Assembly (NCBI GenBank): GCA_000004695.1
Contig: CM000151.3
Location: 7,168,001-7,232,000, forward strand
Direction: 5' to 3'
DNA from: Dictyostelium discoideum
Lineage: Eukaryota
DNA: 64,000 bases
Part shown: positions 4,695 to 22,548 of the stretch, piece by piece
Layout of the letters: each line of letters opens with the position of its first letter
Position numbering within the stretch: position 1 is the first letter of the stretch
Notes under the pieces: model-generated
What the model saw: only the letters and a program-made list of their open reading frames with translations
What the model was told of the DNA's origin: nothing
Databases searched by the model: none
Translations under genes and position numbers: made by a program

Positions 4695-5337
4695 TGACAA
4701 ACAACAATAATAATTTAAATAAAGAAGGTTGGTAAAATAAAAAAAAAAAATAAAAAGAATAGTAATAAATAAAAAATATAAAATTATTAATAATTCTTTT
4801 TTTTTTTACTTAGTTAATAACTTAGAAAAAGAAGCAGTATCAGCATATGATAACACAAAAGAAGCAACAATCAATGCATATAATGCAACAACAAATGCAA
4901 TGAGTGATGGTATGAAATATGTTAGTGATTCATTATCATCAGCAGCTGAAGTAACAAAAGATGCAACAATCAATATGTATAATGCAACAACTAACGCAGT
5001 GAGTGATGGTTATGAATCTTTAAAATCAAAAACAAATGAATTAATTGACAATACTCAAAATGAAAATAAAAATTTAAAAGATGGTACTTCAAAGAAAATC
5101 GAAGAATTAAAAGATGAATCAAGTGAAGTAAAAGATAATATTAAAGAAAAAGGCGAAGAACTAGTTGAAGATGCTAAAGATGCTGCTCATAATGCTTCAA
5201 ATAAATTAAATAACGCTAAAGATCAAGTTTCTGATAAAATGGATAATGTAAAAGATGATTTATCAAATAAATACGATGAAACAAAAAAAGAAGCCGCTCA
5301 CAAACTTAATCAAGCTTCAAATAAAATTGATCAATAA
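4695..5337 (+). CDS. Small hydrophilic K/E/D/N-rich protein, LEA-like or amphipathic-repeat (paralog 1 of a tandem pair). Two exons: 4695..4728 (MTNNNNNLNKE) and about 4826..5337 (acceptor at 4825 or alternatively 4813).
   Basis: ORF 4900..5337 stays open upstream to a poly-T. A short upstream exon, ATG...GAAG|gt, joins in phase 1, exactly as in the downstream paralog. The donor GTTGGT is weaker than consensus. The protein carries 11-mer-like repeats (ATINMYNATTNA / KD..KEKGEEL). Confidence 0.5.
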
Positions 5338-5980: not shown

Positions 5981-6667
5981 ATGACAAACAATGACAATAT
6001 AAATAAAGAATGTAAGATTTTGGAAATAATAATATAAAAAAAAAAAAAACCATTAAAAAAAAAAAAAAAATAATTCTAACAATGTTATATAACATTTTTT
6101 TCCATAGCTACAAATTTTAAAAATGATGTAGTTACAGCATATGATAATTCATTAGATGCAATGAGTGATGGTATGAAATATGTTGGTGATTCGTTGTCAT
6201 CAGCAGCCGAAGTAACAAAAGATAAAACAATTGAAATGTATCATAAAACAACTAATGCAATGAGTGATGGTTATGAATCATTAAAATCAAAAGCAAATGA
6301 ATTAATTCACCATTCAAATGATGATGATGAAAGTCAACATGAAGATGGTGCTTCTAAAAAAGTTGAAGAATTAAAAGAGAAATCCAATCAAGTTAAAGAT
6401 GATATTAAAAAGAAGGGTGAAGAATTAAAAGAGAAATCAATAGATGTTAAAAATGAAATAAAGGATAATTTAAAAGAAAAAGGTGAGGAACTAGTTGACG
6501 ATGCTAAAGATGCTGCTCATAAAGCTTCAAATAAGATGAATGGTGTTAAAGATAATTTATCAGAAAAGATGGACGATATTAAATCTGATATGTCTGATAA
6601 ATATAAAGATGTAAAAAAAGAAACTGCTAATAAATTAAATCAAACTGCTAATAAAATTGATCAATAA
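5981..6667 (+). CDS. Small hydrophilic K/E/D-rich LEA-like protein (paralog 2). Two exons: 5981..6011 (MTNNDNINKE, donor GTAAGA at 6012) and 6108..6667 (acceptor ccatAG).
   Basis: ORF 6161..6667 extends upstream to the acceptor at 6106-6107. The upstream mini-exon begins with ATG and has a consensus donor, and the phase-1 join gives MTNNDNINKE-S-TNFKNDVVTAYDNSLDAMSDGMKYVGD... The product is about 60% identical to the 4695..5337 gene, including the MTNN start. Confidence 0.6.
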
Positions 6668-6865
6668 TAATTTTTAAGACTTTTTATTAATATTGATTAA
6701 TTTATTTATCATTTAATTATAAAATTTGATTTTATTTATTAAATTTAATAATATTTTTTATATTTGAAAGTTTATTAAAAAACATTAATGATTCATTTGC
6801 TTGGTAATCTATTTAATCACTAATCCTTTTAGTTTATGAACCACCACCATGACTATTATCTGTCC

Positions 6866-7040
6866 CATGCCAAAATTAATATGGCTGCTGAAATTAATAT
6901 GATAATTTTGGCATGGGACTTATGTCTGCTAGAATTACCATATTAATTTCGGCAACCATATTAATTTTGGCATGCACAGACCAACTATTTTAGGCTAAAA
7001 TTAATATGGCTGCCGAAATTAATATGGTAATTTTGGGCAC
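6866..7040. repeat. Composite repeat of three ~45-bp units, arranged direct - inverted - direct (about 6870-6918, 6938-6975, 6995-7038). Each unit has the form ccaaaattaatatggctgc(t/c)gaaattaatatgg(t)aattttgg. The unit is itself an imperfect palindrome: tcccatgccaaaattaatat ... atgataattttggcatggga.
   Basis: Seen directly. Unit B (ccatattaatttcggcaaccatattaattttgg) is the exact reverse complement of units A/C. This is a locally GC-enriched island inside AT-rich intergenic DNA, capable of extensive hairpin or cruciform folding. Confidence 0.7.
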
Positions 7041-7555
7041 AGAAAAATAAAAAAAAAACTCAAAGTCATTTAATTAATAATAATAATCATCTCAAATATA
7101 AAAGAATTAAAAATAATAATAAAAAAAAACTCATGGGATTAATTATAGTAACAATACTGACGACAAGAATAATTATAAAATAAAAAAAAAAAAAAAAAAT
7201 CTTTTTTTATCTTTTTATTTTTATTTCTTATTTATTTTCATGTGTTCTAAAAAAGTGGTGGTTTAAAACAATTTATTTAATTTTAAACTGTATGATTGTT
7301 TAAACAATTTCGAAATAAGTTTCTTTAATTTCTGTATTTCTTTTTTTTATTTTATTTTATTTCATTTCATTCTATTTTTTTTTTTTTTTTTTTTTTTTTT
7401 ATTTTTTTATTTTTTATTTTTTTTTTAATTATTTTAATTAATTTAATTATATAATGATTTAATAATAAAAAATTAATATTTAGAAAAGTGACTGATTGAG
7501 ATACCTGCGTTATTTTGCTTGATTAACAAAAAAAAGAATCCAAAATATGGTCCAC

Positions 7556-7825
7556 AGTAAAAACAATAAATTAAATAATCAACTTTCTGCAACAGAAATT
7601 GAAAAAAATAATAATAATAAATTAAAAAAACTTTTGAAAAAATATGAAGAAGATGTAAATTTTACAAATAGATTATAAATTTCATGTGTCCAATAAATTT
7701 GGTATTATGAAATTGTAAAATTTACATCTTCGTCATATTTTTTCAAAAGTTTTTTTAATTTATTATTATTATTTTTTTCAATTTCTGTTGCAGAAAGTTG
7801 ATTATTTAATTTATTGTTTTTACTT
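7556..7825. repeat. Long near-perfect inverted repeat (hairpin). The arms are about 112 bp each (7556-7667 and 7713-7825), separated by a ~45-bp spacer, with a single mismatch (gaagaagatg vs gacgaagatg).
   Basis: The left arm is agtaaaaacaataaattaaataatcaactttctgcaacagaaattgaaaaaaataataataataaattaaaaaaacttttgaaaaaatatgaagaagatgtaaattttacaa. The right arm is its reverse complement, ttgtaaaatttacatcttcgtcatattttttcaaaagtttttttaatttattattattatttttttcaatttctgttgcagaaagttgattatttaatttattgtttttact. Confidence 0.85.
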
Positions 7826-7955
7826 TTTTTTTTTAAATTATTAACCACAACCAATTCTTAATTAATTTTATATTTTTTTTTATTATTTTTTTTTTTTGAT
7901 AAATTAAATTCAAAAAATATTTATAAAAAAAAAAAAAAAAAAAATTAAAAAAAAA

Positions 7956-8266
7956 ATGGTAAAAACATCAATATATGTAGGAGGTTTAAAGTAATTATTT
8001 CTATTTTTATTTTTTTAAAAAAAAAAAGTATAAATAATTTACTCTTTTTTTTTAAAAATTTAAGTTCTCATATTTCTAAAGAAATTTTAAAAACAAAGTT
8101 TTCAGTGTATGGTGAAATACAATCACTTGTTTTTGTAAAAGGTAAGGAAACAGGAATATCAGAAGGTTATGCATATATTGAATATAATAATAAAGAAGAT
8201 GCTGTGAAAGCAATAGATGATTTAAACGACCAACCATTTGAGGGTAATCATTTAGAATTATTTTAG
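7956..8266 (+). CDS. Small single-RRM RNA-binding protein (~78 aa). Two exons: 7956..7990 (MVKTSIYVGGL + AA) and 8065..8266.
   Basis: Not in the ORF track. ATG GTA AAA ACA TCA ATA TAT GTA GGA GGT TTA AA|gtaatt is followed by an 74-bp intron and then ttaag|T TCT CAT ATT..., giving MVKTSIYVGGLNSHISKEILKTKFSVYGEIQSLVFVKGKETGISEGYAYIEYNNKEDAVKAIDDLNDQPFEGNHLELF*. RNP2 (IYVGGL) and RNP1-like (EGYAYIEY) motifs are present in the correct spacing. Without splicing the ORF terminates at TAA (7991-7993). Confidence 0.55.
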
Positions 8267-8767
8267 AAATTATCTAAAAAAAAAGAAATAAAATATGAAA
8301 AATAAAAAAATAAAAATTTTTAAACTTTATCTAATTCATTTTTTATTAAAACAATTCCTTTTCTTTTAAAAAAATATAAAATAAAAAATATTTTTTATTA
8401 TGAAAATAAAAAAGCAGAATTAAATTAAAACATAAAATAATTATTTAAAAAAAAACAAGGAATTTAATTTTTTTTTTTTTTTTTTAATAATTTTAAATTG
8501 GTTTTTATTTGTTAGATTATATAAAATAAAAAATTGAATAAATAACTATAAAATGACTTTCTGGATATAATAAAAAATAATCATTATTAAACCAATTTGT
8601 TTGATTACATCTTTAGATTTGTACTTTTTATTTTAGAAAAAAGAACAACCTATTACAGATAAAATTTTTTTTTTTTTATAATTTTTTTTTTTTTTATTTT
8701 TTTATTTTTTTATTTTTTTTTTAAATAAAAAGGAATCAGTTTATTGAACCGTTATATCCTTTTTTGT

Positions 8768-9255: not shown

Positions 9256-10700
9256 TTTTTTTTTTATATATATGAAATTTAAATATAATTTATATTTAAA
9301 TCTAGGAATAATTATAATTTAAAAAATACTAGTTTGAAATGAAGAAATGCTTTGAGTTTAAATAGTTTTTTTAAAAAATCTTAAAATACAAAAAAGGTAA
9401 AAAAAAAAAAAAATAGTAAAAATAAAATAAAATAAAAATAAAATTAAAAAATGTTTTTATTTTTTTTTAATTTATTTTTATTTTATTTTTGGTAGTAGAA
9501 AGCACACTAATCGTTCATTGAACATCTTTTTTTTTGATAAATTATTAATTGTAAAATTTTAATTATTTTAAATTAAATTTAATTCATTTTAAAAAAAACT
9601 TTTTCAATTTCAATCTACAAATGTGTGGTTATAACAAAGTTTAATGTTCAAATAAATTCACCAAGTATGTTCGAAAAAAAAAAAAAATATTTGAATAATT
9701 TTTTTTTTTAAAATTAAATTAACATAAAAAAAAAAAAAAAAAAAACTAACTTAAATTAGGAAATAATAATGATCCGACGTCATTATATATTTTTCTAAAA
9801 ACTTGAATATTTAGGTGTTTTTATTTATTTTTTTTTTTTTTAATTATTTATTATTTTTTTTTTAATTATTTTTTTTTTTTTATTTATTTATTTTTTTATT
9901 TTATTTTTTTTCTAAAAAAAAAAAGTTGGAACAATGTGAAAAATAATAATAACATTTTGTATTACATACAATAATTTATTTGTAAAACTTTTTTTTTTTT
10001 TTAAATATTTTAAAAAAAGTTTTAATTAATTTCAGAATAAAAAAAAAAAAAAAAAAAAATCTAATTTTAGGATCAAATTTCAAACTATTTTTATACTTGT
10101 GTGAATCTCTCAAGAGTTTTAAAGACCAAACAAAACACAATGGTAACAAAAGAAATTTAGACAAAACTATCTATTTTTTTTTTAATCATCTATAAAATAA
10201 ATAGAAAAAAAAAAAAAAAAAAAGAAAAATATTAGTAATAATAAAAATAATAAAATTTATAATGGTAATAAAAAAAAAAATAAATAAATGTGCTAATAAA
10301 AAATTAAAAATAACCCCACGTGCTAATAACAACTGGGGGTTCTTTTTTTTTCTTTTTTTCCATATCTATCTTCGAAAAAAGTTTCGAAATTGTTTTTTTT
10401 TAATAATTAAAAAACAAACACTGTTTTTTTTTTTTTTTTTTTTTTTAGAAAAAAAAATAAAAATAAAATAATAAAAAAAAATAAAAATTAAAAAAAATTA
10501 AAAAAAAATACACTCTTAACCTTTACAACCTTTATAAAAATAGCCAAATATTTTATTAATTATAATAATAATTTTTAACAATATTTATATAACATCCAAT
10601 TTTTTTTGATATTTTATAATAAAAGTTGATTTATCATGTACAATTAAGGAAATTGAAAATAAAAATAAACAATAATTTGAAATTTAAATTTAAATTTAAA

Positions 10701-10731
<31 letters not shown>

Positions 10732-11135
10732 ATCTATTAATATTCTTTATTTCAACACACTCACACACTTTTTAATTATTTTTTTTTTTATTAAATAAAA
10801 AAAAAAAATAAAAAAGAAAAAAAAAAAAACCAAAAAAAAAAACCCAAAATTACTCTCTTTTTCTTTCTATGTTAACTATATTGCTATAATTATCGTTGTG
10901 AACACAACATTTTCCTTTTATTTATTTATTTTTTTTTTCTGTAAATAATAACAATATAAAATAACTGTACATAATTTAATTTAATAAACTCCTTGTATAA
11001 AATAAAAACAATAATAATAATAATATAATAAAAATAATTAATAAATAATTTTAATAATAATTAACAAACTATAAATAAAAAAATAAATAAATAAGTAAAA
11101 AAATAAAAAAATAAATTAATAATATAATAAATAAA

Positions 11136-14100
11136 ATGAAAAATAAAATAATTTTATTATGGTTGTTATTAATAGTGATCCTATGTACAATTTCAAATGT
11201 AAAAGGATGTGGTATGACAACACATAATACAGTGGCAAGAAGAGCATATAACTTCTCAAGTTTTGATGGTAACTATTAATGTTAATAAAAATAATGGGGA
11301 AATCAAAAACTAATTTATTTTTTTTATTTTTTATTTTTTATTTTTTTTATTTTTTTATTTTTTATTTTTTTTTATTATTTTCTTTTTTTTCTTTTTTTAT
11401 TTTTTTTTAAAATAGGTTTTGAACAATATCAAAAATATGTTTCAGAGAATTTTGATGTATTTGATGCAGGTGCAGCATTCCCAGATTTTGGATATGATTG
11501 TGGTGGATTAGCAAATGAATCAGAAGCAGCACATTGGCCACCATTTTTAAGAGCAGCAACTAAATACTTATTAGAAACTTATCCCCAACCATGGAGTTTG
11601 GATGGTATTAGATTAGCAGTATTTCTTTTAGGTGTAACTTCACATCAAATTGCTGATATTTCATGGCATTCAATTGGTGGTATTCAACAAGGTTTAATTC
11701 GTGCTATGGCAGGTCAAGATTTTAATGGTACTTATGAATTAGCTCATGGCAATGCTGATGAAGGTGGTGAATTTGAATTAGCTTATAATTATGATTTATC
11801 TTGGTTATCTGATAGTAAGTATAATATATATATATATATATATTAAATATTTAGCATTTATATTAATTATTATTATTATTATTATAAAATTTAGAATGGT
11901 ATGTGCCAATTACAGATATAAAGAATATTTTTCATTCAATGAATTATCCAAGAGTTGATGATGAAAATTTATTAAGATGTAATGCAATATTGTATGCTGG
12001 TGCAATGGGTGTTAAGATTGGTGGTAGATTTTTCTATCCTGAAATTGCAAAGAAATCACCATTCTTGGTTGACCATTATCAAGATTATTTCATTGGTGGT
12101 TTGGATGATATGTCAATTTGGACATCATATTGTTGGCCAGTATTAATGGGTTGGATGGATGGCGAAGATATTGGTGATTTTTGTTTTATTCAACCTGATC
12201 CAAATAATGATGATGACAATCAACATTTACGTTTACATCATAAACATTCAATATTAAAAAATGGTTCAAAAATTAAAGAAGCATTATCAAAATCAATTTT
12301 AAATGAAATGAAAATTACAAATAATGGTAAAGGTGTAACTTTTTCATTACCAAATTCAATGGAAAAAGCAATTAATCAAGTTTTAAATAAATTTAATCAA
12401 AATCCAATTGGCACATTATTAGAAAAATATTTACCAAATTTATTTAATAATAAAAATAAATTTTATCAAGAAAATGAAAATGAACAATATAATCATGATG
12501 AGGAGGAATTAAATATTATTGATATTGATATTGATATTGAAGAAGAAGAACAAGAAGAAGAAGAAGATAAACCAATTAGAATGTTATCAAAGAATAATAA
12601 TTTTAAAAATTATGAATATTTAAATGATAAAAAGAAATCATCATCGTCAAAATTAAAAAATAAATCTAAAAAGAATATAATTAAATTAAATTCAGATTCA
12701 AATGATTTAGGAACTAATTTTACAACTATTTATGGTCAAAATATGTATTCTTATTTTGGTAAAGATATTAGAAGCAAAGATTTGAATGGTGATGGATTTG
12801 ATGATTTAATTATATCATCACCAGGTTTTGGTGTGCCAGGTTCAATGCAAACTGGTTGTGTTTATTATATCATTTCAAATGGAAGTAGTGTTACAATTGA
12901 TGGTGGTAGTGGTTTCACATCAGAGTTTGATATTGATCAAGTTGCAACTGGTAAACTTTGTGGTAATGAAACTCATGCAAAATTTGGGTGGAATATTGAT
13001 GTATTAGATTTTAATTTAGATGGTATTTTTGATATTATTATTGGTGCACCATCTTCATCCAATGCAAATCTACAATATTTAGGTATGATATATATTTATC
13101 TTGGTGAAAAGAACAACCCTGCTGGTGAATGGAGTACAGAATCTGATTTACCAAGTATAACCATTCAAGGTATTGAATATGCTGATACTATTGGTACAGT
13201 TTTAAGAGTTGCCGATTGTAATGCCGATTCAAATGCAGATTTAATACTTGGTTCACCACATTCTGCTGGTGGTGGTACTCAACGTGGAACAGTTCAAATA
13301 TTTTATTCATCAAAAAAGAGAATCTCTGGTATTCCAATTAGTTTAAATGATGCAGATTATTATGGACATGGTGAAGTTGATTATGAATGGTTTGGTTATG
13401 AAATTAAGGTTGCAGGTCAAGGTGATAGTTCAACATTGTTGGTTGGTTCACCAAATTATCATGATGAAGAGACAGCAATTGTGAATATTGGTAAAATCAC
13501 ATCGTTCCCATATAATGTAAATTTAAATTCCTTTGATTTAAATCCAAAGTTTGTTATGGTTGGTGTTAATAAAAATGATAAACTTGGCTATAGTTATAAT
13601 ATGGTAAATGGCTCTTTATTTGGTTTGGATAATGTCAATGATATTATGGTACTTTCATTACCAACGAGAGGATTTGGTGATGATTTCGACCAAGTTGGTG
13701 AGGTGGTATTAATTGATATCGATAATCTATCAGGTTTCGTCGAGATTAAGAATGTAAATCTTTTACTCTCTATTAAAGGTACAACCAAATATTCAAGATT
13801 TGGTGAAAGTTTATTAATTGGTAAATTAGAATCAACTGATGAATTTGCTCGTCTATTCGTTGGTGCTCCATTATGGACCGATTCAATCGATACTGGTCCT
13901 GGTTGTGTTTTCACTTTCTTACCAAATCAACACCTTACAAATGATCCTGCAGTTTTAAAACAAAATATAATTAATAATACACCAGTGGTTATCTATGATT
14001 CAACTCATAGTATCAAAACTTTTAGAATTGACGATGACAGTGGTAGTAGTGGTGGTAGATCATTCAATAATAAAAGAAAAGATAGTAGATTCGGTTTTAG

Positions 14101-14242: not shown

Positions 14243-14335
<93 letters not shown>
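14243..14335. repeat. (ATA/TAA)n trinucleotide microsatellite, about 31 units, in the 3' flank of the GPI-PLD gene.
   Basis: Seen directly: a perfect aataataat... run. Confidence 0.9.
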
Positions 14336-14464
14336 TAATAGGGAAAATCAAATACAATTGTAAATTAAATATTTAAATAAATTTTTTTTTTTTTTTTTTT
14401 ATTTTTTTATTTCTTTAAACAATAATTGATAAATTTTGTTTGTAGATAATTATTTTTAAATTGT

Positions 14465-15317
14465 TTAAAGATTACAAAATACTTGTTGATTAAATTCTTG
14501 ACAATATTGGACACCGGTTTTAAAAAATTCGGAATAGGTATATCTAATACAATTGTTTTGATTGTGAGAGTAGTATTGATCAAAGTTTGTAGAATTACAA
14601 GTTACTTGATATGCTGTACTTTCACTAGTTAATAAGCATCTATTAATTGGTGTATATCTAATTGTTGTAAATGTTTGTTTCCAATTACCACCACATTCTC
14701 CTGTATAATCAAATACAACTAATGTATCTTTTGGAATTACAATTTCTGACGAATCAATAATAGTATATATATATGACCCTGATAATTTACAATCCATTAC
14801 ACATTCATCAATTTTAAAATGTTCAATACTGTAAAAGGTTCTATATTATTATGAATTTTATATTAATATCATTATTATTATTTATTATTATTATTTTTTA
14901 TTATTATTATTAAGAAACTTACTGGCATCTATCTTCTGTATATGCAGTTTTTGAAATTGTACCATTGGCATAATCTACTCTGTAGATGTAATAATAATAA
15001 TTATCATTATCCATTAAAAGGCACTCACCGACTACAACGAATAATTCATTTTCAATTTCACTGTTATCACAATCTTGAATTGATGATGACCAACTTGCAG
15101 ATTGAGAATTACCACCATCAATATTACCTAAATTTAACATTCTTTCGTCTGTTGCAAAACTACCTGTTGACATTGGTCCTAAACCACTGGAATCAGAATC
15201 TCTACAACGATATTGATCATATTGGAATGTCTTTATTGAAATTACTGATTCACCACTAGATAAATAAAAATTATTTACTGAAACTAATATTAAAACTAAA
15301 AATGTTAAAAATTTCAT
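14465..15317 (-). CDS. Secreted cysteine-rich protein, copy A of a tandem three-gene family (~254 aa, signal peptide MKFLTFLVLILVS...). Two exons on the minus strand: 14923..15317 and 14465..14828, with a 94-bp intron (donor CA|GTAAGT, acceptor ttttacAG).
   Basis: ORFs 14919..15317(-) and 14465..14797(-) join in phase 2 through an AT-rich intron, giving ...AYTEDRC-H-IEHFKIDECVMDCKLSGSY... About 12 conserved Cys are shared with the paralogs. I recognise no family, so the fold and function are unknown. Confidence 0.6.
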
Positions 15318-15823
15318 TTTTTATTTCTATCGATTATAAAATGATTTCTTTTTTTTTAATTTATACTTGCCTTAATAAAAAAAAAAAAAAAAAAAAAAAA
15401 TTTAAACCGTAAATTATTTCCCACCAAGCGATAAAAGACGACCTTTTTTTATTTTTTAAAAAATTTAAATTTTAACATTTTAATAAAAAAAAATATCTCC
15501 GGGCTCAATTTTTTTTTTTTTATTAAGGCAAGTATAAATTATTAATAAAAAAAAAAAAAAAAAAAAAAGGAAATTTACAAAAACTTTTACAACAACCTCT
15601 TTTTTTATTAACATTATCACCAAAACAATAAAAATTTATAAAATGGCTACCTTAAAAGATAAGAAAAAAAAAAAAAAAAAAAAAAATGGTAACAAAAAAT
15701 CGGGCATGTGTCTCGTTAGGAAATTGCAGGCGCTCTTTAAATATTTTAAGTAGTAGCGTAATAATAGTATAATATAATTTTTATTTTTATTTTTATTTTT
15801 TTATTTTAAAAATAATTATATAA

Positions 15824-16702
15824 TTAAATATTACAAAATACTTGTTGATTGAATTCAGCACAATATTGAACACCAGTTTTATGTTCCATATCAGAATAAT
15901 ATCTAATACAATTGTTTTGATTGTATGAGTAGTATTGATTAAAGTTTGTAGAATTACAAGTTACTTGATATGCTGTACTTTCACTAGTTAATAAGCATCT
16001 ATTAATTGGTGTATATCTAATTGTTGTAAATGTTTGATTCCAATTAACACCACATTCTCCTGTATAATCAAATACAACTAATGTATCTTTTGGAATTACA
16101 ATCTCTGACGAATCAATAATAGTATATATATATGACCCTGATAATTTACAATCCATTACACATTCATCAATTTTAAAATGTTCAATACTGTAAAAGTTTC
16201 TATAATATATAATGATAATGTTTTTATATTAATATCATTATTATTATTATTTATTATTATTTTTACTATTATTATTATTATTATTATTATTTTTAATAAG
16301 AAACTTACTGGCATCTATCTTCTGTATATCCAGTTTTTGAAATTGTACCATTGGCATAATCAATTCTGTAGATGTAATAATAAAAGTCATCATTATCCAA
16401 TAAAAGACATTCACCAACTACAATGAATAATTCATTTTCAATTTCACTGTTATCACAATCTTGAATTGATGATGACCAACTTGCAGATTGAGAATTACCA
16501 CCATCAATATTACCTAAATTTAACATTCTTTCGTCTGTTGCAAAACTACCTGTTGACATTGGTCCTAAACCACTGGAATCATCATTTCTACAACGATATT
16601 GATCATATTGGAATGTCTTTATTGAAATTACTGATTCACCACTAGAAAAATAAAAATTATTATTGAAACCAATATTAAAACTAAAAATGTTAAAAATTTC
16701 AT
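15824..16702 (-). pseudogene. Copy B of the secreted Cys-rich family. The exon/intron structure is the same (exons about 16309..16702 and 15824..16187), but a 1-bp deletion in the signal-peptide region frameshifts the N-terminus. Either a pseudogene or an assembly indel.
   Basis: Copy B reads ...gtttcaataataatttttatttttctagt... where copies A and C have ...tcagtaaataatttttatttatctagt. Reading from the ATG at 16702-16700 hits TAA after 25 codons, and the mature-protein frame has a TAA immediately upstream. The rest of the ORF (16305..16559 and 15824..16156) is intact and 85-90% identical to copy A. Confidence 0.5.
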
Positions 16703-17218
16703 TTTTTATTTCTATCGATTATAAAATGATTTCTTTTTTTTTTTTTTTTATTTATACTCACCTTTATAAAAAAATAAAAAAAAAAAATTAAACCCGAAAT
16801 TTCTATTATTTCCAACCTACAACCAAACAGATAAGACGGAAAAGGTGACCTTTTTAAAAAATTAAATTGTTAGGGATAAAAATTGAACTCATAATTTCCG
16901 AGCCAAATTTTTTAACAAAAAAAAAAAAATTACAAAAACTTTTCCTTTTTCAACCATTGCCCAAAACTTTTTTATCAAAGTTAAAAATCCCATTTCAATT
17001 AATGATCACTATTCAAAAAAAAAATATTCATTTAATACCAATTTATAAGGAGTTATACAAAACTTATATAGATAATTTTTTTTTAAAAAAAAAAAAAAAC
17101 AAAAACAAATATTAAAAGATAATTTCGGACACTATTTAGTGGAGCGTAAAATATAATTTAATTTTTTATTATTTTTTTATTTTTTATTTTTTTAAAAATA
17201 ATTAAAATAATTATATAA

Positions 17219-17658
17219 TTAAACATTACAAAATGCTTGTTGATTGAATTCTTTACAATATTGAACACCAGTTCTGTGTTCGATTTCAGAACTATATCTA
17301 ATACAATTGTTTTGATTGTAAGAGTAGAATTCATTAAAGTTTGTAGAATTACAAGTTATTTGATATGCAGTATTTTCACCGGTTAATAAGCATCTATTAA
17401 TTGGTGTATATCTAATTGTTGTAAAAGTTTGTTTCCAATTACCACTACATTCTCCTGTATAATCGAATACAACTAATGTATTTTTTGGAATTACAATTTC
17501 TGATGAATCAATAATAGTAAATAAATATGGTCCTGATAATTTACAATCCTTTACACATTCATCAATTTTGAAATGTTCAACTCTGGAAAAGGTTCTGTTT
17601 TTTATTATATTTATTATTATTATTTTATTAATATTATTTTTATTATTATTATTTTTTA

Positions 17659-17692
<34 letters not shown>

Positions 17693-18104
17693 ATTATTAA
17701 TAAGAAACTTACTCGCATCTATCATCTGAATATGCAGTTTTTGAAATTGTACCATTGGTATAATCAACTCTGTAGGTGTAGTAATAATAATAATCACCAT
17801 CCATTGGGAGACATTCACCGACTACAACGAAAAATTCATTTTCAATTTCACTGTTATCACAATCTTCAACTGATGATGACCAACTTGCAGATTGAGAATT
17901 ACCACCATCAATATTACCTAAATTTAAAATTCTTTCGTCTGTTGCAAAACTACCTGTTGACATTGGTCCTAAACCACTGGAATCATCTCTACAACGATAT
18001 TGATCATATTGGAATGTCTTTATTGAAATTACTGATTTACCACTAGATAAATAAAAATTATTTATTGAAACCAATATTAAAACTAAAAATGTTAAAAATT
18101 TCAT
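17219..18104 (-). CDS. Copy C of the secreted Cys-rich family (~250 aa). Minus-strand exons 17713..18104 and 17219..17591 (donor GA|GTAAGT, acceptor ttttccAG).
   Basis: The true start is the internal MKFLTFLVLILVSINNFYLSSG of ORF 17709..18215. The second ORF, 17219..17818, reads through the intron. The join gives ...YSDDRC-E-VEHFKIDECVKDCKLSGPY... Confidence 0.6.
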
Positions 18105-18561
18105 TTTTTTTTTTTTTTTTTTTTTTGTATTGATATAAAAAGAAAAGAGGTTATTAAAATTAAATGAAAAAAAAAAAAAAAAAAATTGAATTTTCAAAAA
18201 AAAAAAAAAAATCACAAAAAAAAAAAACCATCAAAAAAATCACGAAAAACCATCAAAAAAAAAAATCATTAAAAATCCAATAATGACGAATCTTTTTGAT
18301 ATTTATAAACGCGTTTTTTTAGGTAATTTTTCTTTATTTTTTCTTTTTCTTTTTTTTTTTTTAAAAAAAAAATAATGGCTTTTTTAATATTAATATCATT
18401 ATTGTAAAATATTATTTGCAAATATTAGATTCTTTTAATTATAAAAAAAAAAAAAAAAAAAAAAATAAAAAATAATTCGTTTAACTTTACTTTCAACCAA
18501 TTTTTATTTTTAATAATTCTAATATATTTATAAATAATTATTTTTCATTCAATCAAGATTT

Positions 18562-18621
<60 letters not shown>

Positions 18622-18639
18622 AAATTGATTGTTTAAAAG

Positions 18640-18821
18640 GTGACAATTATTGGTTTGAAAAATTTGATTTTTTTTTTTTGTTTAGTTGGATAGCTCAAAT
18701 GGTTGGATAAATTTGATTTTTTTTTTTGAATTGGATAACGCAATTATTAGTTGCTTCTCCTTGGATGCTAGATCTCATTTTATTAGTAGTGTTTTTTACA
18801 GGGTCTCCAAAAGAGGGTTAG

Positions 18822-18854
<33 letters not shown>

Positions 18855-19625
18855 GAATTTTTTTTTTTTTTTTTTTTTTTGAATTTTGAATTGTATTATT
18901 ACTTTTGATTAAAATATCTTTTTTGTCCAAACTTTTTTCTAAATCTTTTTTTATTTTATCGTCGGCTTCATGATTGATGTTTATGACATATTTGAATTGT
19001 TTTTTTTTTATTTGAGTTTTGTCTACAATTTCGCTTTTTTTTTGTGGGCATTTGCATTGCTTAATATTTGTGGTGTTGTTTGTAATTTTCATCTTATTTT
19101 CTTTCTATTTTTTTTATTTTACTTTAAAAAGTTAAGATTTATGAATGGTATTTAATTGTTTTATTGATTTTGAGGCTGGTTTTGTCTCCATAGTCTTTCT
19201 CCTTTCTTTTGTTGCTCGTATTATGGTATTATTAATTCAATGATTACCATGTTGTGATAAGATTTTTAATTTGATTCCTTAAATAGTTTGTTTTTTTCGA
19301 TCTGATTATTTTTTTCTTTTTCTTGAAACCATAGTTTGTTTTTCCAGCTTAGCAAAATTTTCAAAACCAAACAAAAAATAAATTACAATAAAGTAAAAAG
19401 ATGGCTTTTTAAAATAGTTCATTTATTTATTAATTTATTTGTTTTATAAGTCTTTTTATATGAAAAATGAAATAATCAAAAAAAGAGATTATTTGTTTTT
19501 TCTATCTGATTGAAGGATAAATTTTATTTTTTTTTGAATGGAATAACGCAATTTTTAGTTGCTTCTTCTTGAGATATATCTCATTTTATTAATTTTATTA
19601 TTACAGGTGCCTTTTTAGGTTGTAT

Positions 19626-19668
<43 letters not shown>

Positions 19669-19960
19669 TTGGGTGTAGAGTGTGTTTAGTGATGTAATAT
19701 ATTTGTTGAGGTTTGATGGTAGTGCTACTGTGAGTAGTGGTGAGTTCCAATGTTTGCTAAATCTTTCGAGTTGTAGGGAGATGATGTTTTTGAATTTTTT
19801 TATTTGGTTGCTTTTTTTTCTTGTCTGATTAGTTTGCATATGTTGTTTTTTGTTCTATCCCAGGCTGTTGTTTGAGTTTTCTTTAGTTCGTGTGCTAGTA
19901 GTTGTTTTCTTAAGTTTTTGAGTGTTATTCCTTCAGGAGAAATTTTATAAATATTTCTAA
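18640..19960. mobile_element. Retroelement-like, T/G-rich (on the plus strand) non-coding region immediately upstream of tRNA-Phe. It contains two copies of an ~85-bp unit (18715-18800 and 19535-19617, gaat(t)ggataacgcaatt(a/t)ttagttgcttct(c/t)cttg(g/a)gat...ctcattttatta...acagg...), each followed by a 40-55-bp poly-T (18827-18880, 19633-19676). This is consistent with nested or truncated copies of a tRNA-gene-targeted non-LTR element (TRE5-like) on the minus strand with oligo(A) tails.
   Basis: The base composition here differs from surrounding DNA (G+T-rich, few A runs). The poly(T) tracts read as poly(A) on the minus strand. The region ends about 30 bp before the tRNA. There is no long ORF, so if this is a TRE element it is a non-autonomous or truncated copy. 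Assignment to TRE5 rests on its position and general knowledge, not on recognised sequence. Confidence 0.3.
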
Positions 19961-19980
19961 TTTAATTTTAAAAAATATAA

Positions 19981-20054
19981 GCCTTAGTAGCTCAGTTGGT
20001 ACGAGCGTGAGACTGAAGATCTTAAGGTCGCTGGTTCGATCCCGGCCTGAGGCA
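19981..20054 (+). tRNA. tRNA-Phe (anticodon GAA), 74 nt, no intron, CCA not encoded.
   Basis: Cloverleaf: acceptor GCCTTAG/CTGAGGC (one G-U pair), D-arm GCTC-AGTTGGTAC-GAGC, anticodon stem TGAGA/TCTTA with loop CTGAAGA (U33, GAA at 34-36, G37 as in tRNA-Phe), and T-arm GCTGG-TTCGATC-CCGGC. The A-box (TAGCTCAGTTGG) and B-box (GGTTCGATCCC) are present. Confidence 0.9.
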
Positions 20055-20082
20055 AAATTTCCTATTATCTTTAAGCAGATCG

Positions 20083-20099
20083 CTGGTTCGAATCCAGGG
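20083..20099 (+). promoter_or_regulatory. Extra B-box (exB) downstream of the tRNA gene, GCTGGTTCGAATCCAGG, about 30 bp 3' of tRNA-Phe.
   Basis: A second perfect B-box consensus (GGTTCGAATCC) sits 41 bp after the tRNA's own B-box. This is a characteristic feature of Dictyostelium tRNA genes. Confidence 0.6.
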
Positions 20100-20684
20100 T
20101 TAGAGGCAGTGTTCCGACTGGGGAGGAGACAATTAGTCACACTTATGAATTCTCAAAAATAACAAAACAATAAACAAAATCATACCTATAATACCTTTCC
20201 ACATGAAAAAAGACCATAAAGTTAACATAGACTACATTCATTCAAAATTTGATGAATCACTTTTTGAATGGTGTTATAAATCATTGGATTATCATCAAAA
20301 GACACACTTTGAATTTGTAACAAAAAGCGATTACAGTAAACAAATTAAAAATATTAAAAATCAAAGACTACTGTATAATAAAATAAACACATGATATTTA
20401 AATCTTGTAGTAAATTTTTTTTTTTTTTTTTTTCAGATATTAATTAATTATTTGCAACTCTTTATTTTTATTAAATAATTATAATAATAATTATAGCTAT
20501 AAAAATAATTCACTGTATTTAAAAATTAAAACTCTTTATTTTACATTTTAAAAATAAAATTCATTAAAAAACTATTAATTAATGATTGTTTCTTTTAATG
20601 AATAAAAAAAAAAGAGTTCAAAGCGTTTTGAAAAAAAAAAAAAAAAAAAAAACAATTCTTATTTTTATATTTTTATTCATTCCT

Positions 20685-20728
<44 letters not shown>

Positions 20729-21018
20729 GTAAGCAAAATATTTCTCTTAAAAAAAAAAATTTCAAAAAAAAAAAAAAATAAATCCTAAAAACCAAGGATA
20801 CCAAAAATGGATCAAAATAAATAAAAAAAATAAATAAAGAAAAATAAAAAAAGGTAAAAAAAGTAATCATCGATGATCAAACAAACAAAGGGGTGTTTTA
20901 AAAAAAAAAAAAAATATTATTTATTTATTATTTTTTTAAATTTTTTAAATAAAATAAATAAAATAAAAATTAATTAAAAAAAAAACAAAACAATTTTTTA
21001 ATGAAAGTCTAATATTTG

Positions 21019-21049
<31 letters not shown>

Positions 21050-21407
21050 GAAAATTGAAATGATAAAAAAAAAAAAAAATTGAAAATTTTAAACAACACC
21101 CCCAACCACCATCTCAAAAAAAAAAATTATCCTTTTTTATTTTTATTATTTTTTTTTTTTTTTTTTTATCATTTTTATAAATAAATATTCATAAATAAAA
21201 AAAAAAAAAAAAAACCAACATCAATTTTTTTTTTATTTTATTTTATATATATTTTTTTTTTTGTACATAGTTATCTATTATATATTTATATATATATACA
21301 TAAAAAATCATATAAATTAATATATATAAAAAAAATAAATTAAATTAAAATTAAATAAAAATAAAAAAATAAAAAAAATAAAAAATAAAATAAAATAAAA
21401 AAAGGGG

Positions 21408-22548
21408 ATGAGTACTAATAATAATAAAGCACCAACATCACAATCAAGTGATAAAAGTGCGACAACAGAATCAAAGTTAAATGATAATGAAAATACAGAA
21501 ACAGAAACCAAAACAGATGAAAACAATGAAGAAAAACCAAAGATGACATTGAAACCACCACAACCAAAAATTGAAAATAAGGTATCAACCATTGATAGAG
21601 TTGTACCAAGTGTAAAATATCCAAAATCTTTACCTCTTCCACATGATGTTTTATTCAATGAAGATAAAACTATAAATTTACCAAAGTTACAAGAACATTT
21701 CTTTGCAGAAGGTAGATTAAATCATGACGATGTTATTGAAATCGTTAAAATGGCAGCTGAAATTTTAGAAAAAGAACCAACTTTAATTCAAGTTGAAGCA
21801 CCAATTACAGGTAATATCTTTTTTTTTAAAAATTTTATTTTTTCATATTTTTTTTTAAAAAAAAAAAAAAAAAAAAAATTGAGATATCTAACAATTAAAT
21901 CTTTTTATTTTTATTTTCTATTTTTATTTTTTATTAAATCACAAAAATAAAAAAAAAAAATAAAAAATAAAAATATTTTTATATATATATAATTTTAGTA
22001 TGTGGTGATACTCATGGTCAATTTTATGATTTAATTAAAATATTTGAAAATGATATTGGTGGTAACCCAGCAAATACAAATTATTTGTTTTTAGGTGATT
22101 ATGTTGACAGAGGTTATTTTTCAATGGAAGTCATCATTTATCTCTATGCTTGTAAAATTAATTATCCAAATACTTTCTTCCTCTTGAGAGGTAATCACGA
22201 ATGTAGACATTTAACAGAATATTTCACTTTTAAAGAAGAATGTAATTATCTAACCTAATTCTTTCATTTATCAATAACCAATCAAAAAAACAATTCTCAG
22301 AGAATTAATTTAATGTATTAATAAATTCTATTTTTTTTTAAATTTTATTTTTAGGTTTACATAAATATTCAGAAGAAGTTTATGATTTCATTACAGAATC
22401 ATTCAATGCATTACCATTAGCAGCTTTAATGAATGGTAAATTCCTTTGTATTCATGGTGGTTTATCACCTGATATTAAAACTGTATGTATATTATTTTTC
22501 AGTCAGTCAGTCAATTAATTAATTAAAATATAAAATATTAATTTTTTA

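Follow-up and report, generated by a model that had tools for sequence, protein, structure and literature searches.

A probable copy of the mir-7131 hairpin module within a dispersed element on Dictyostelium discoideum chromosome 2

Introduction

What kind of element is a compact, G+C-enriched repeat that stands out in the A+T-rich intergenic DNA of Dictyostelium discoideum? The question is raised by a repeat at 6866-7040 of a 64-kb window, the window being the whole stretch of DNA that was analyzed (64,000 nucleotides). The window is part of chromosome 2 of strain AX4, and four of its open reading frames are exact D. discoideum AX4 proteins (DDB_G0276929, DDB_G0276933, expansin-like protein 5, and a citrate synthase exon). 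A first-pass annotation offered two general readings of the repeat, a MITE-like or foldback element and a structured non-coding RNA, and both are considered here.

Results

Architecture of the repeat

The repeat search resolved three units of about 45-50 nt in direct-inverted-direct order, as had been described from inspection of the sequence, and the module they form occupies 6862-7039.

6862-6919, plus strand: unit 1 (U1), with two AAATTAATATG 11-mers; folds alone at -27.8 kcal/mol
6927-6976, minus strand: unit 2 (U2), the inverted copy and common arm, able to pair with U1 or U3
6992-7039, plus strand: unit 3 (U3), a repeat of U1 in the same orientation (93% identity over 43 nt)

In the same search U1 and U2 form an inverted pair (6866-6913 / 6927-6974, 48 nt, 90% complementary, 13-nt spacing), as do U2 and U3 (6933-6971 / 6994-7032, 39 nt, 95% complementary, 22-nt spacing), and U1 and U3 form a direct pair (6869-6911 / 6994-7036, 93% identity). 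Each unit had also been described as a palindrome in its own right. This is most evident in U1, where a perfect 17-bp stem (GTCCCATGCCAAAATTA/TAATTTTGGCATGGGAC, 6862-6878 / 6903-6919) encloses a 24-nt loop, whereas alignment of the units shows U2 and U3 to be weaker palindromes. Each unit contains the 11-mer AAATTAATATG twice, with a spacing of 18 nt. Six of the seven copies of this 11-mer in the 64-kb window lie within 6873-7026, in the orientation ++--++, and the seven observed compare with 0.93 expected, a count of seven being reached in none of 100 shuffles. The contrast in base composition noted at first reading is confirmed, with a G+C content of 0.34 in 6862-7040 (34% against about 15% on either side) compared with 0.155 and 0.152 in the flanks and 0.217 in the window. 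The three-unit module is present as a single copy within the 64-kb window, and it is a real, non-random feature.

Predicted folding of the module

Secondary-structure prediction, which had been proposed as a check, shows that the region 6850-7050 folds far better than shuffled sequence, with energies of -86.8 kcal/mol on the plus strand and -85.2 kcal/mol on the minus strand (z of about -12 on both strands; equaled by none of 200 shuffles). Two hairpins are predicted within it.

6878-6964, both strands: hairpin A (U1:U2), the fold of Rfam RF03716; 95.2 bits on plus, 88.0 bits on minus
6933-7032, both strands: hairpin B (U2:U3); -57.2 kcal/mol on plus, -56.9 kcal/mol on minus

Because U2 is the common arm, hairpins A and B are mutually exclusive, and each strand has these two alternatives. 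For the module as a whole, the minimum-free-energy fold combines hairpin B with the U1 self-hairpin (-85.0 kcal/mol on the plus strand), and the minus strand has the same folding pattern. When extended to 6860-6980, hairpin A gives -67.1 kcal/mol on plus and -63.3 kcal/mol on minus, and its Rfam-matched part gives -42.7 kcal/mol. Since U2 can pair with either neighbor and near-equivalent hairpins are predicted on both strands, the locus could give several closely related small RNAs.

Family assignment

A scan of the whole window against Rfam at the gathering threshold identified the mir-7131 microRNA precursor, RF03716, at 6878-6964 on the plus strand and again at 6876-6962 on the minus strand. 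The gathering score of this family is 74 bits, and the matches span model positions 1-84 of 84. The reading as a structured non-coding RNA is therefore upheld by a curated microRNA-precursor threshold that is passed on both strands. The copy at 6878-6964 reproduces the RF03716 loop GACUUAUGUC and keeps both mature-like arms, and it differs from the consensus by a 3-nt insertion (UGG) beside the loop and about six substitutions. A further difference is that RF03716 models the U1:U2 pairing alone, whereas the locus adds a third unit with a competing hairpin. Sub-threshold Rfam matches to MIR5512, MIR8742, and other plant and animal miRNA families reached less than half the gathering score and were set aside as generic long-hairpin matches.

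Membership of the locus in the family is shown here at the level of both sequence and structure. The mir-7131 family, which was defined in the AX4 genome, we take to be miRBase ddi-mir-7131a-d, the thug-S miRNAs of Avesson et al. 2012; the name mir-7131 gave no match in the literature search. Judged by its sequence and predicted fold, the repeat is very likely a copy of the module that defines mir-7131, and so of the same family as miRNA_can_D3, which its authors placed in thug-S.

Published small RNAs at the locus

The two small RNAs of miRNA_can_D3, the 5p species UAUGGCUGCUGAAAUUAAUGUGG and the 3p species AUUAAUUUCGGCAGCCAUAUU (Meier et al. 2016, PMC4894637 Table 2), are both included in the RF03716 consensus with 1-2 differences. 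Four segments of the module resemble them.

6880-6902, plus strand: 23-mer-like segment in U1, TATGGCTGCTGAAATTAATATGA, 2 mismatches to miRNA_can_D3-5p
6942-6962, plus strand: 21-mer-like segment in U2, ATTAATTTCGGCAACCATATT, 1 mismatch to miRNA_can_D3-3p
7005-7027, plus strand: 23-mer-like segment in U3, TATGGCTGCCGAAATTAATATGG, 2 mismatches to miRNA_can_D3-5p
7003-7023, minus strand: exact match (21/21) to miRNA_can_D3-3p (AUUAAUUUCGGCAGCCAUAUU), in the reverse complement of U3

The variants specific to this locus are TATGGCTGCTGAAATTAATATGA, TATGGCTGCCGAAATTAATATGG, and ATTAATTTCGGCAACCATATT on the plus strand and TATGGTTGCCGAAATTAATATGG and ATTAATTTCAGCAGCCATATT on the minus strand. The partner of the 21-mer-like segment at 6942-6962 is 6878-6898 in hairpin A and 7003-7023 in hairpin B. 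In the predicted folds of the two hairpins, each small-RNA-like segment has 20-22 of its 21-23 nt in base pairs; for the stem of hairpin A the values are 21 of 23 nt in the 23-mer-like segment and 20 of 21 nt in the 21-mer-like segment. The 3' end of the latter is predicted to leave a 2-nt overhang in hairpin A as well as in hairpin B, which would match the expectation for RNase III products. With as many as 3 mismatches allowed, the rest of the window showed no candidate targets of the small RNAs. A metagenome match to the query TATGGYTGCYGAAATTAATRTG is a lone 22-nt match that appears to lie in coding sequence and lacks an inverted partner within 300 nt, and it was attributed to chance.

The miRNA_can_D3-5p 23-mer shows 2-3 mismatches to the locus, and its exact sequence is absent from the whole 64-kb window. 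Table S4 of PMC4894637 lists six genomic loci for miRNA_can_D3, and the locus described here cannot be one of them if those loci were exact matches. On the assumption that they were, the locus would be a diverged paralogue outside the six. On the strand mapped in that table, the start of the 21-mer, which bears the 3p name, is 63 nt upstream of the start of the 23-mer, which bears the 5p name. The same 63 nt separate U2 from U3 here (7005-6942 on the plus strand and 7023-6960 on the minus strand), so that the published small RNAs agree with the locus both in sequence, at 0-2 mismatches, and in spacing. The published order, with the 21-mer first, fits a U2:U3-type hairpin but conflicts with the U1:U2 fold of Rfam and with the 5p/3p names.

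The entry miRNA_can_D3 was reported to satisfy all six miRNA criteria of PMC4894637, including dependence on RbdB and an increase in agnA-. Normalized reads of miRNA_can_D3-3p fell from 68 in wild-type AX2 to 3.3 in rbdB- and rose to 186 in agnA-, a strain in which siRNA production is impaired (PMC4894637). Since Table S4 gives several (six) loci for the miRNA_can_D3 entry, we equate this row with the thug-S miRNA of that study. In the supplements of two later papers, PMC6161686 (2018) and PMC11014262 (2024), neither mir-7131 nor thug nor any matching sequence was found, and thug-S loci were excluded from the pri-miRNA transcript and transcription start site analyses of the 2018 study (Liao et al., PMC6161686). 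This absence and exclusion leave the miRNA standing of the family weaker than that of single-copy loci.

The family's absence from the later supplements is also what would be seen if the locus were a source of endogenous siRNAs, with a transposon foldback transcribed on both strands or by read-through to yield heterogeneous 21-nt siRNAs that silence thug-S, and no precisely diced miRNA. The equal folding of the two strands, the passing of the Rfam threshold on both, and the multicopy, transposon-derived nature of the family point the same way. We nevertheless regard this explanation as unlikely, given that miRNA_can_D3 has the six reported miRNA criteria, is RbdB-dependent, and is increased in the siRNA-impaired agnA- strain, and that the discrete 5p and 3p species have Dicer-like offsets in agreement with the predicted fold.

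The dispersed element and its link to a transposon

A protein search with the translated frames of the repeat returned a single match, P0031, which led to a second locus (L004) in the assembly GCA_054859355.1. This locus lies on a different contig with unrelated neighbor genes and is a non-syntenic copy; it is the only other locus on which the dispersal comparison is based. The comparison extends the repeat to the right.

7040-7322: AT-rich tail moving with the hairpin module, 87-89% identity to the L004 copy

Module and tail together make up a dispersed element of about 470 bp, at about 6852-7322. The triple module of L004 (11676-11953) aligns with window 6857-7156 at 89% identity, its continuation (14335-14566) aligns with window 7078-7322 at 87% identity, and a solo unit is present at 9971-10052. 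The L004 copy has the private differences of the window copy from the Rfam consensus. It has also lost an 18-nt sub-repeat of U2 and scores 59.4 bits against the threshold of 74, which suggests that there is little constraint on the hairpin. The case in which the unit is both unique in the genome and untranscribed, named by the first-pass annotation as contrary to its reading, does not apply to the family, which has related copies at L004 and at the six loci of PMC4894637 Table S4.

The small RNAs of the family have been assigned to the thug-S DNA transposon (PMC4894637, PMC6161686), and it is from this literature, together with small-RNA similarity, that a link of the present element to thug-S may be drawn. 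No transposon coding part was found beside the element at 6852-7322. An ORF upstream of the L004 copy was considered as a repeated transposon ORF and rejected, its matches besides itself being one relative of about 923 amino acids (81% identity) and a 59%-identical stretch in the neighbor gene; it offers no connection to thug-S.

Several of these observations would suit a silent relic, that is, a decayed thug-S-related fragment that is neither transcribed nor processed, with the small RNAs of the family coming from other, intact copies. The decay of the L004 relative (the 18-nt deletion and a score below threshold) and the lack of an adjoining coding part agree with it, as do the plus-strand mismatches to the published reads, the absence of the exact 23-mer, and the presumed position of the locus outside the six listed in Table S4. 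Such a relic is possible, but we consider it doubtful for a locus at which both hairpins are near intact, with arms that are 90% and 95% complementary, the RF03716 score is well over 74 bits, and the minus strand carries a perfect copy of one published 21-mer.

The suggestion of a MITE-like or foldback element or structured RNA was sound in its general idea, given the RF03716 match over threshold and the placement of the family in thug-S in the literature, but its MITE part is not borne out. The inverted units are internal, within the first 190 bp of the element, and not terminal. In the comparison with L004 no sequence complementary to the left end was found at the right end of the element (about 7322), and the tail is asymmetric and AT-rich.

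In animals and plants, some miRNA hairpins derive from MITEs or other DNA transposons, human mir-548 from Made1 being an example. The module resembles such MITE-derived miRNAs, in which an inverted repeat carried by a transposon gives, on transcription, a long, near-perfect hairpin that is diced, and whose families are multicopy, lineage-specific, and evolutionarily young. It differs from the mir-548/Made1 type, where the arms are the terminal inverted repeats, in having three adjacent internal units followed by an asymmetric tail of about 280 bp.

The L004 region has several features of its own. The match P0031 ("hypothetical protein ACTFIW_000391", 10001-11765) takes its start, MAAEINM, from the solo unit and its end, SHAKINMAAEINMIILAWDLCLLELPY, from the triple module, and its middle has 59% identity to the adjoining 978-aa gene, of which it is a partial paralogue; the gene model is probably an artifact joined over a 1.2-kb "intron". 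Within the element tail an 85-bp direct repeat (11869-11953 / 14329-14413, 98% identical) flanks a 2.4-kb segment with two called genes, one of them consisting of 9-nt tandem repeats. In that isolate the element would have been split either by the insertion of this segment or by a duplication. At 14943-21765 lies a large helicase and RNA-dependent RNA polymerase gene of an RNAi-pathway type (Pfam DEAD/Helicase_C/RdRP), about 400 bp from the element tail and about 3 kb from the hairpin module, a proximity that may be coincidental.

Orthologous sites and gene neighborhood

Two loci are syntenic with the window, L001 in D. cf. discoideum (GCA_054859205.1) and L002 in the assembly labeled D. discoideum (GCA_054859355.1), and at both of them the two sides align at 83-94% identity. 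No counterpart of window 6781-7921 was found at either syntenic locus. The element is shown here to be dispersed and polymorphic. Alignment with the empty L001 locus gave short AT-rich blocks only, in low-complexity DNA, and defined neither the exact empty site nor a target-site duplication. At L002 (10624-10797) the whole 1.6-kb stretch corresponding to window 6673-8316 is missing, including the RRM gene at 7957-8266, and at L001 (10789-12259) the RRM gene is kept. The 83-94% identity of both assemblies to AX4 looks like a high divergence for isolates of one species.

The repeat had been placed in the 3' flank of the second of two LEA-like paralogs. The position is correct: the repeat starts 195 nt downstream of the stop of the ORF at 6161-6667, and the module spans 195-373 nt past the stop codon (6665-6667). 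The LEA designation is fair as a loose label, with no LEA family matched. The ORFs at 4900-5337 and 6161-6667 are tandem paralogues encoding small hydrophilic proteins with YtxH- and apolipoprotein-like matches just below the Pfam cut-offs. Exact translations of the two ORFs are absent from the protein collection searched, and the homologous gene models at L001 and L002 cover more DNA than the products require; the real genes probably contain an intron or start elsewhere. On its other side the element is followed by the small RRM gene at about 7957-8266.

The location just past a stop codon, together with the six AAATTAATATG copies at 18-nt phasing in the orientation ++--++, raises the alternative that the module acts as DNA or in cis, with the phased 11-mers as protein sites (for example, sub-terminal transposase-binding repeats) or the module as the 3' end or terminator of the LEA-like gene. 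The orthologous sites argue against a role for the gene, since L001 and L002 have the LEA-like gene without the element and the gene can therefore do without it. The repeats come with neither a transposase nor a terminal structure, and the RNA-family match explains the architecture with no need for a further hypothesis. We consider a DNA-level function highly unlikely.

The lineage-specific stretch 6781-7921 also holds a second and much longer foldback at 7556-7824, located after the mir-7131 element and before the RRM gene, with 122-nt arms that are 96% complementary and a 25-nt loop. Its predicted RNA fold has an energy of -153.7 kcal/mol (z = -27), with no Rfam match, and hairpin RNA or siRNA could arise from it. 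A 43-codon ORF beginning at the ATG at 7548 occupies the left arm together with the bases immediately preceding it, and in the window and the loci compared it recurs only in its own inverted arm. Elsewhere in the window, a tRNA-Phe (GAA) at 19981-20054 is the sole tRNA gene. The TRE retrotransposons of Dictyostelium typically target tRNA genes.

Discussion

The most probable identity of the repeat, a copy of the mir-7131 module, suggests how it would be processed, by a scheme that derives from studies of the family, not of the locus itself. A transcript across the module would fold into a stem of about 40 bp, either U1:U2 or U2:U3. The nuclear microprocessor, comprising the Dicer-like DrnB and the dsRNA-binding RbdB, would excise a 21-23-nt duplex with 3' overhangs, and one strand of the duplex would then enter an Argonaute. 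On the minus strand, a T-run followed by G is found at about 7042-7062 and about 7180-7199, just upstream of the hairpin. A T-run with G has been described as a pri-miRNA start motif (PMC6161686), and it is given little weight here because T-runs of this kind seem to be frequent in the AT-rich intergenic DNA examined.

A more specific proposal is that the locus is an uncatalogued, lineage-specific mir-7131 paralogue in which the three units act as a structural switch, with U2 pairing, on either strand, to U1 co-transcriptionally or to U3 at equilibrium, and in which a single insertion would yield several distinct isomiRs. We consider this quite unlikely. If it were true, the isomiRs could act on the adjacent LEA-like or RRM gene, or could silence thug-S in trans.

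The mir-7131 family is already curated in Rfam for the genome to which the window belongs, and the locus is of a known kind that adds little that is new. It does show that reading the sequence alone can spot a real transposon-derived miRNA hairpin in intergenic DNA that is 85% A+T. The absence of the element at two orthologous sites is in keeping with the rapid turnover that has been reported for miRNA loci in Dictyostelium, and the two mutually exclusive precursors predicted on each strand are a detail that may be of interest to those working on Dictyostelium small RNAs.
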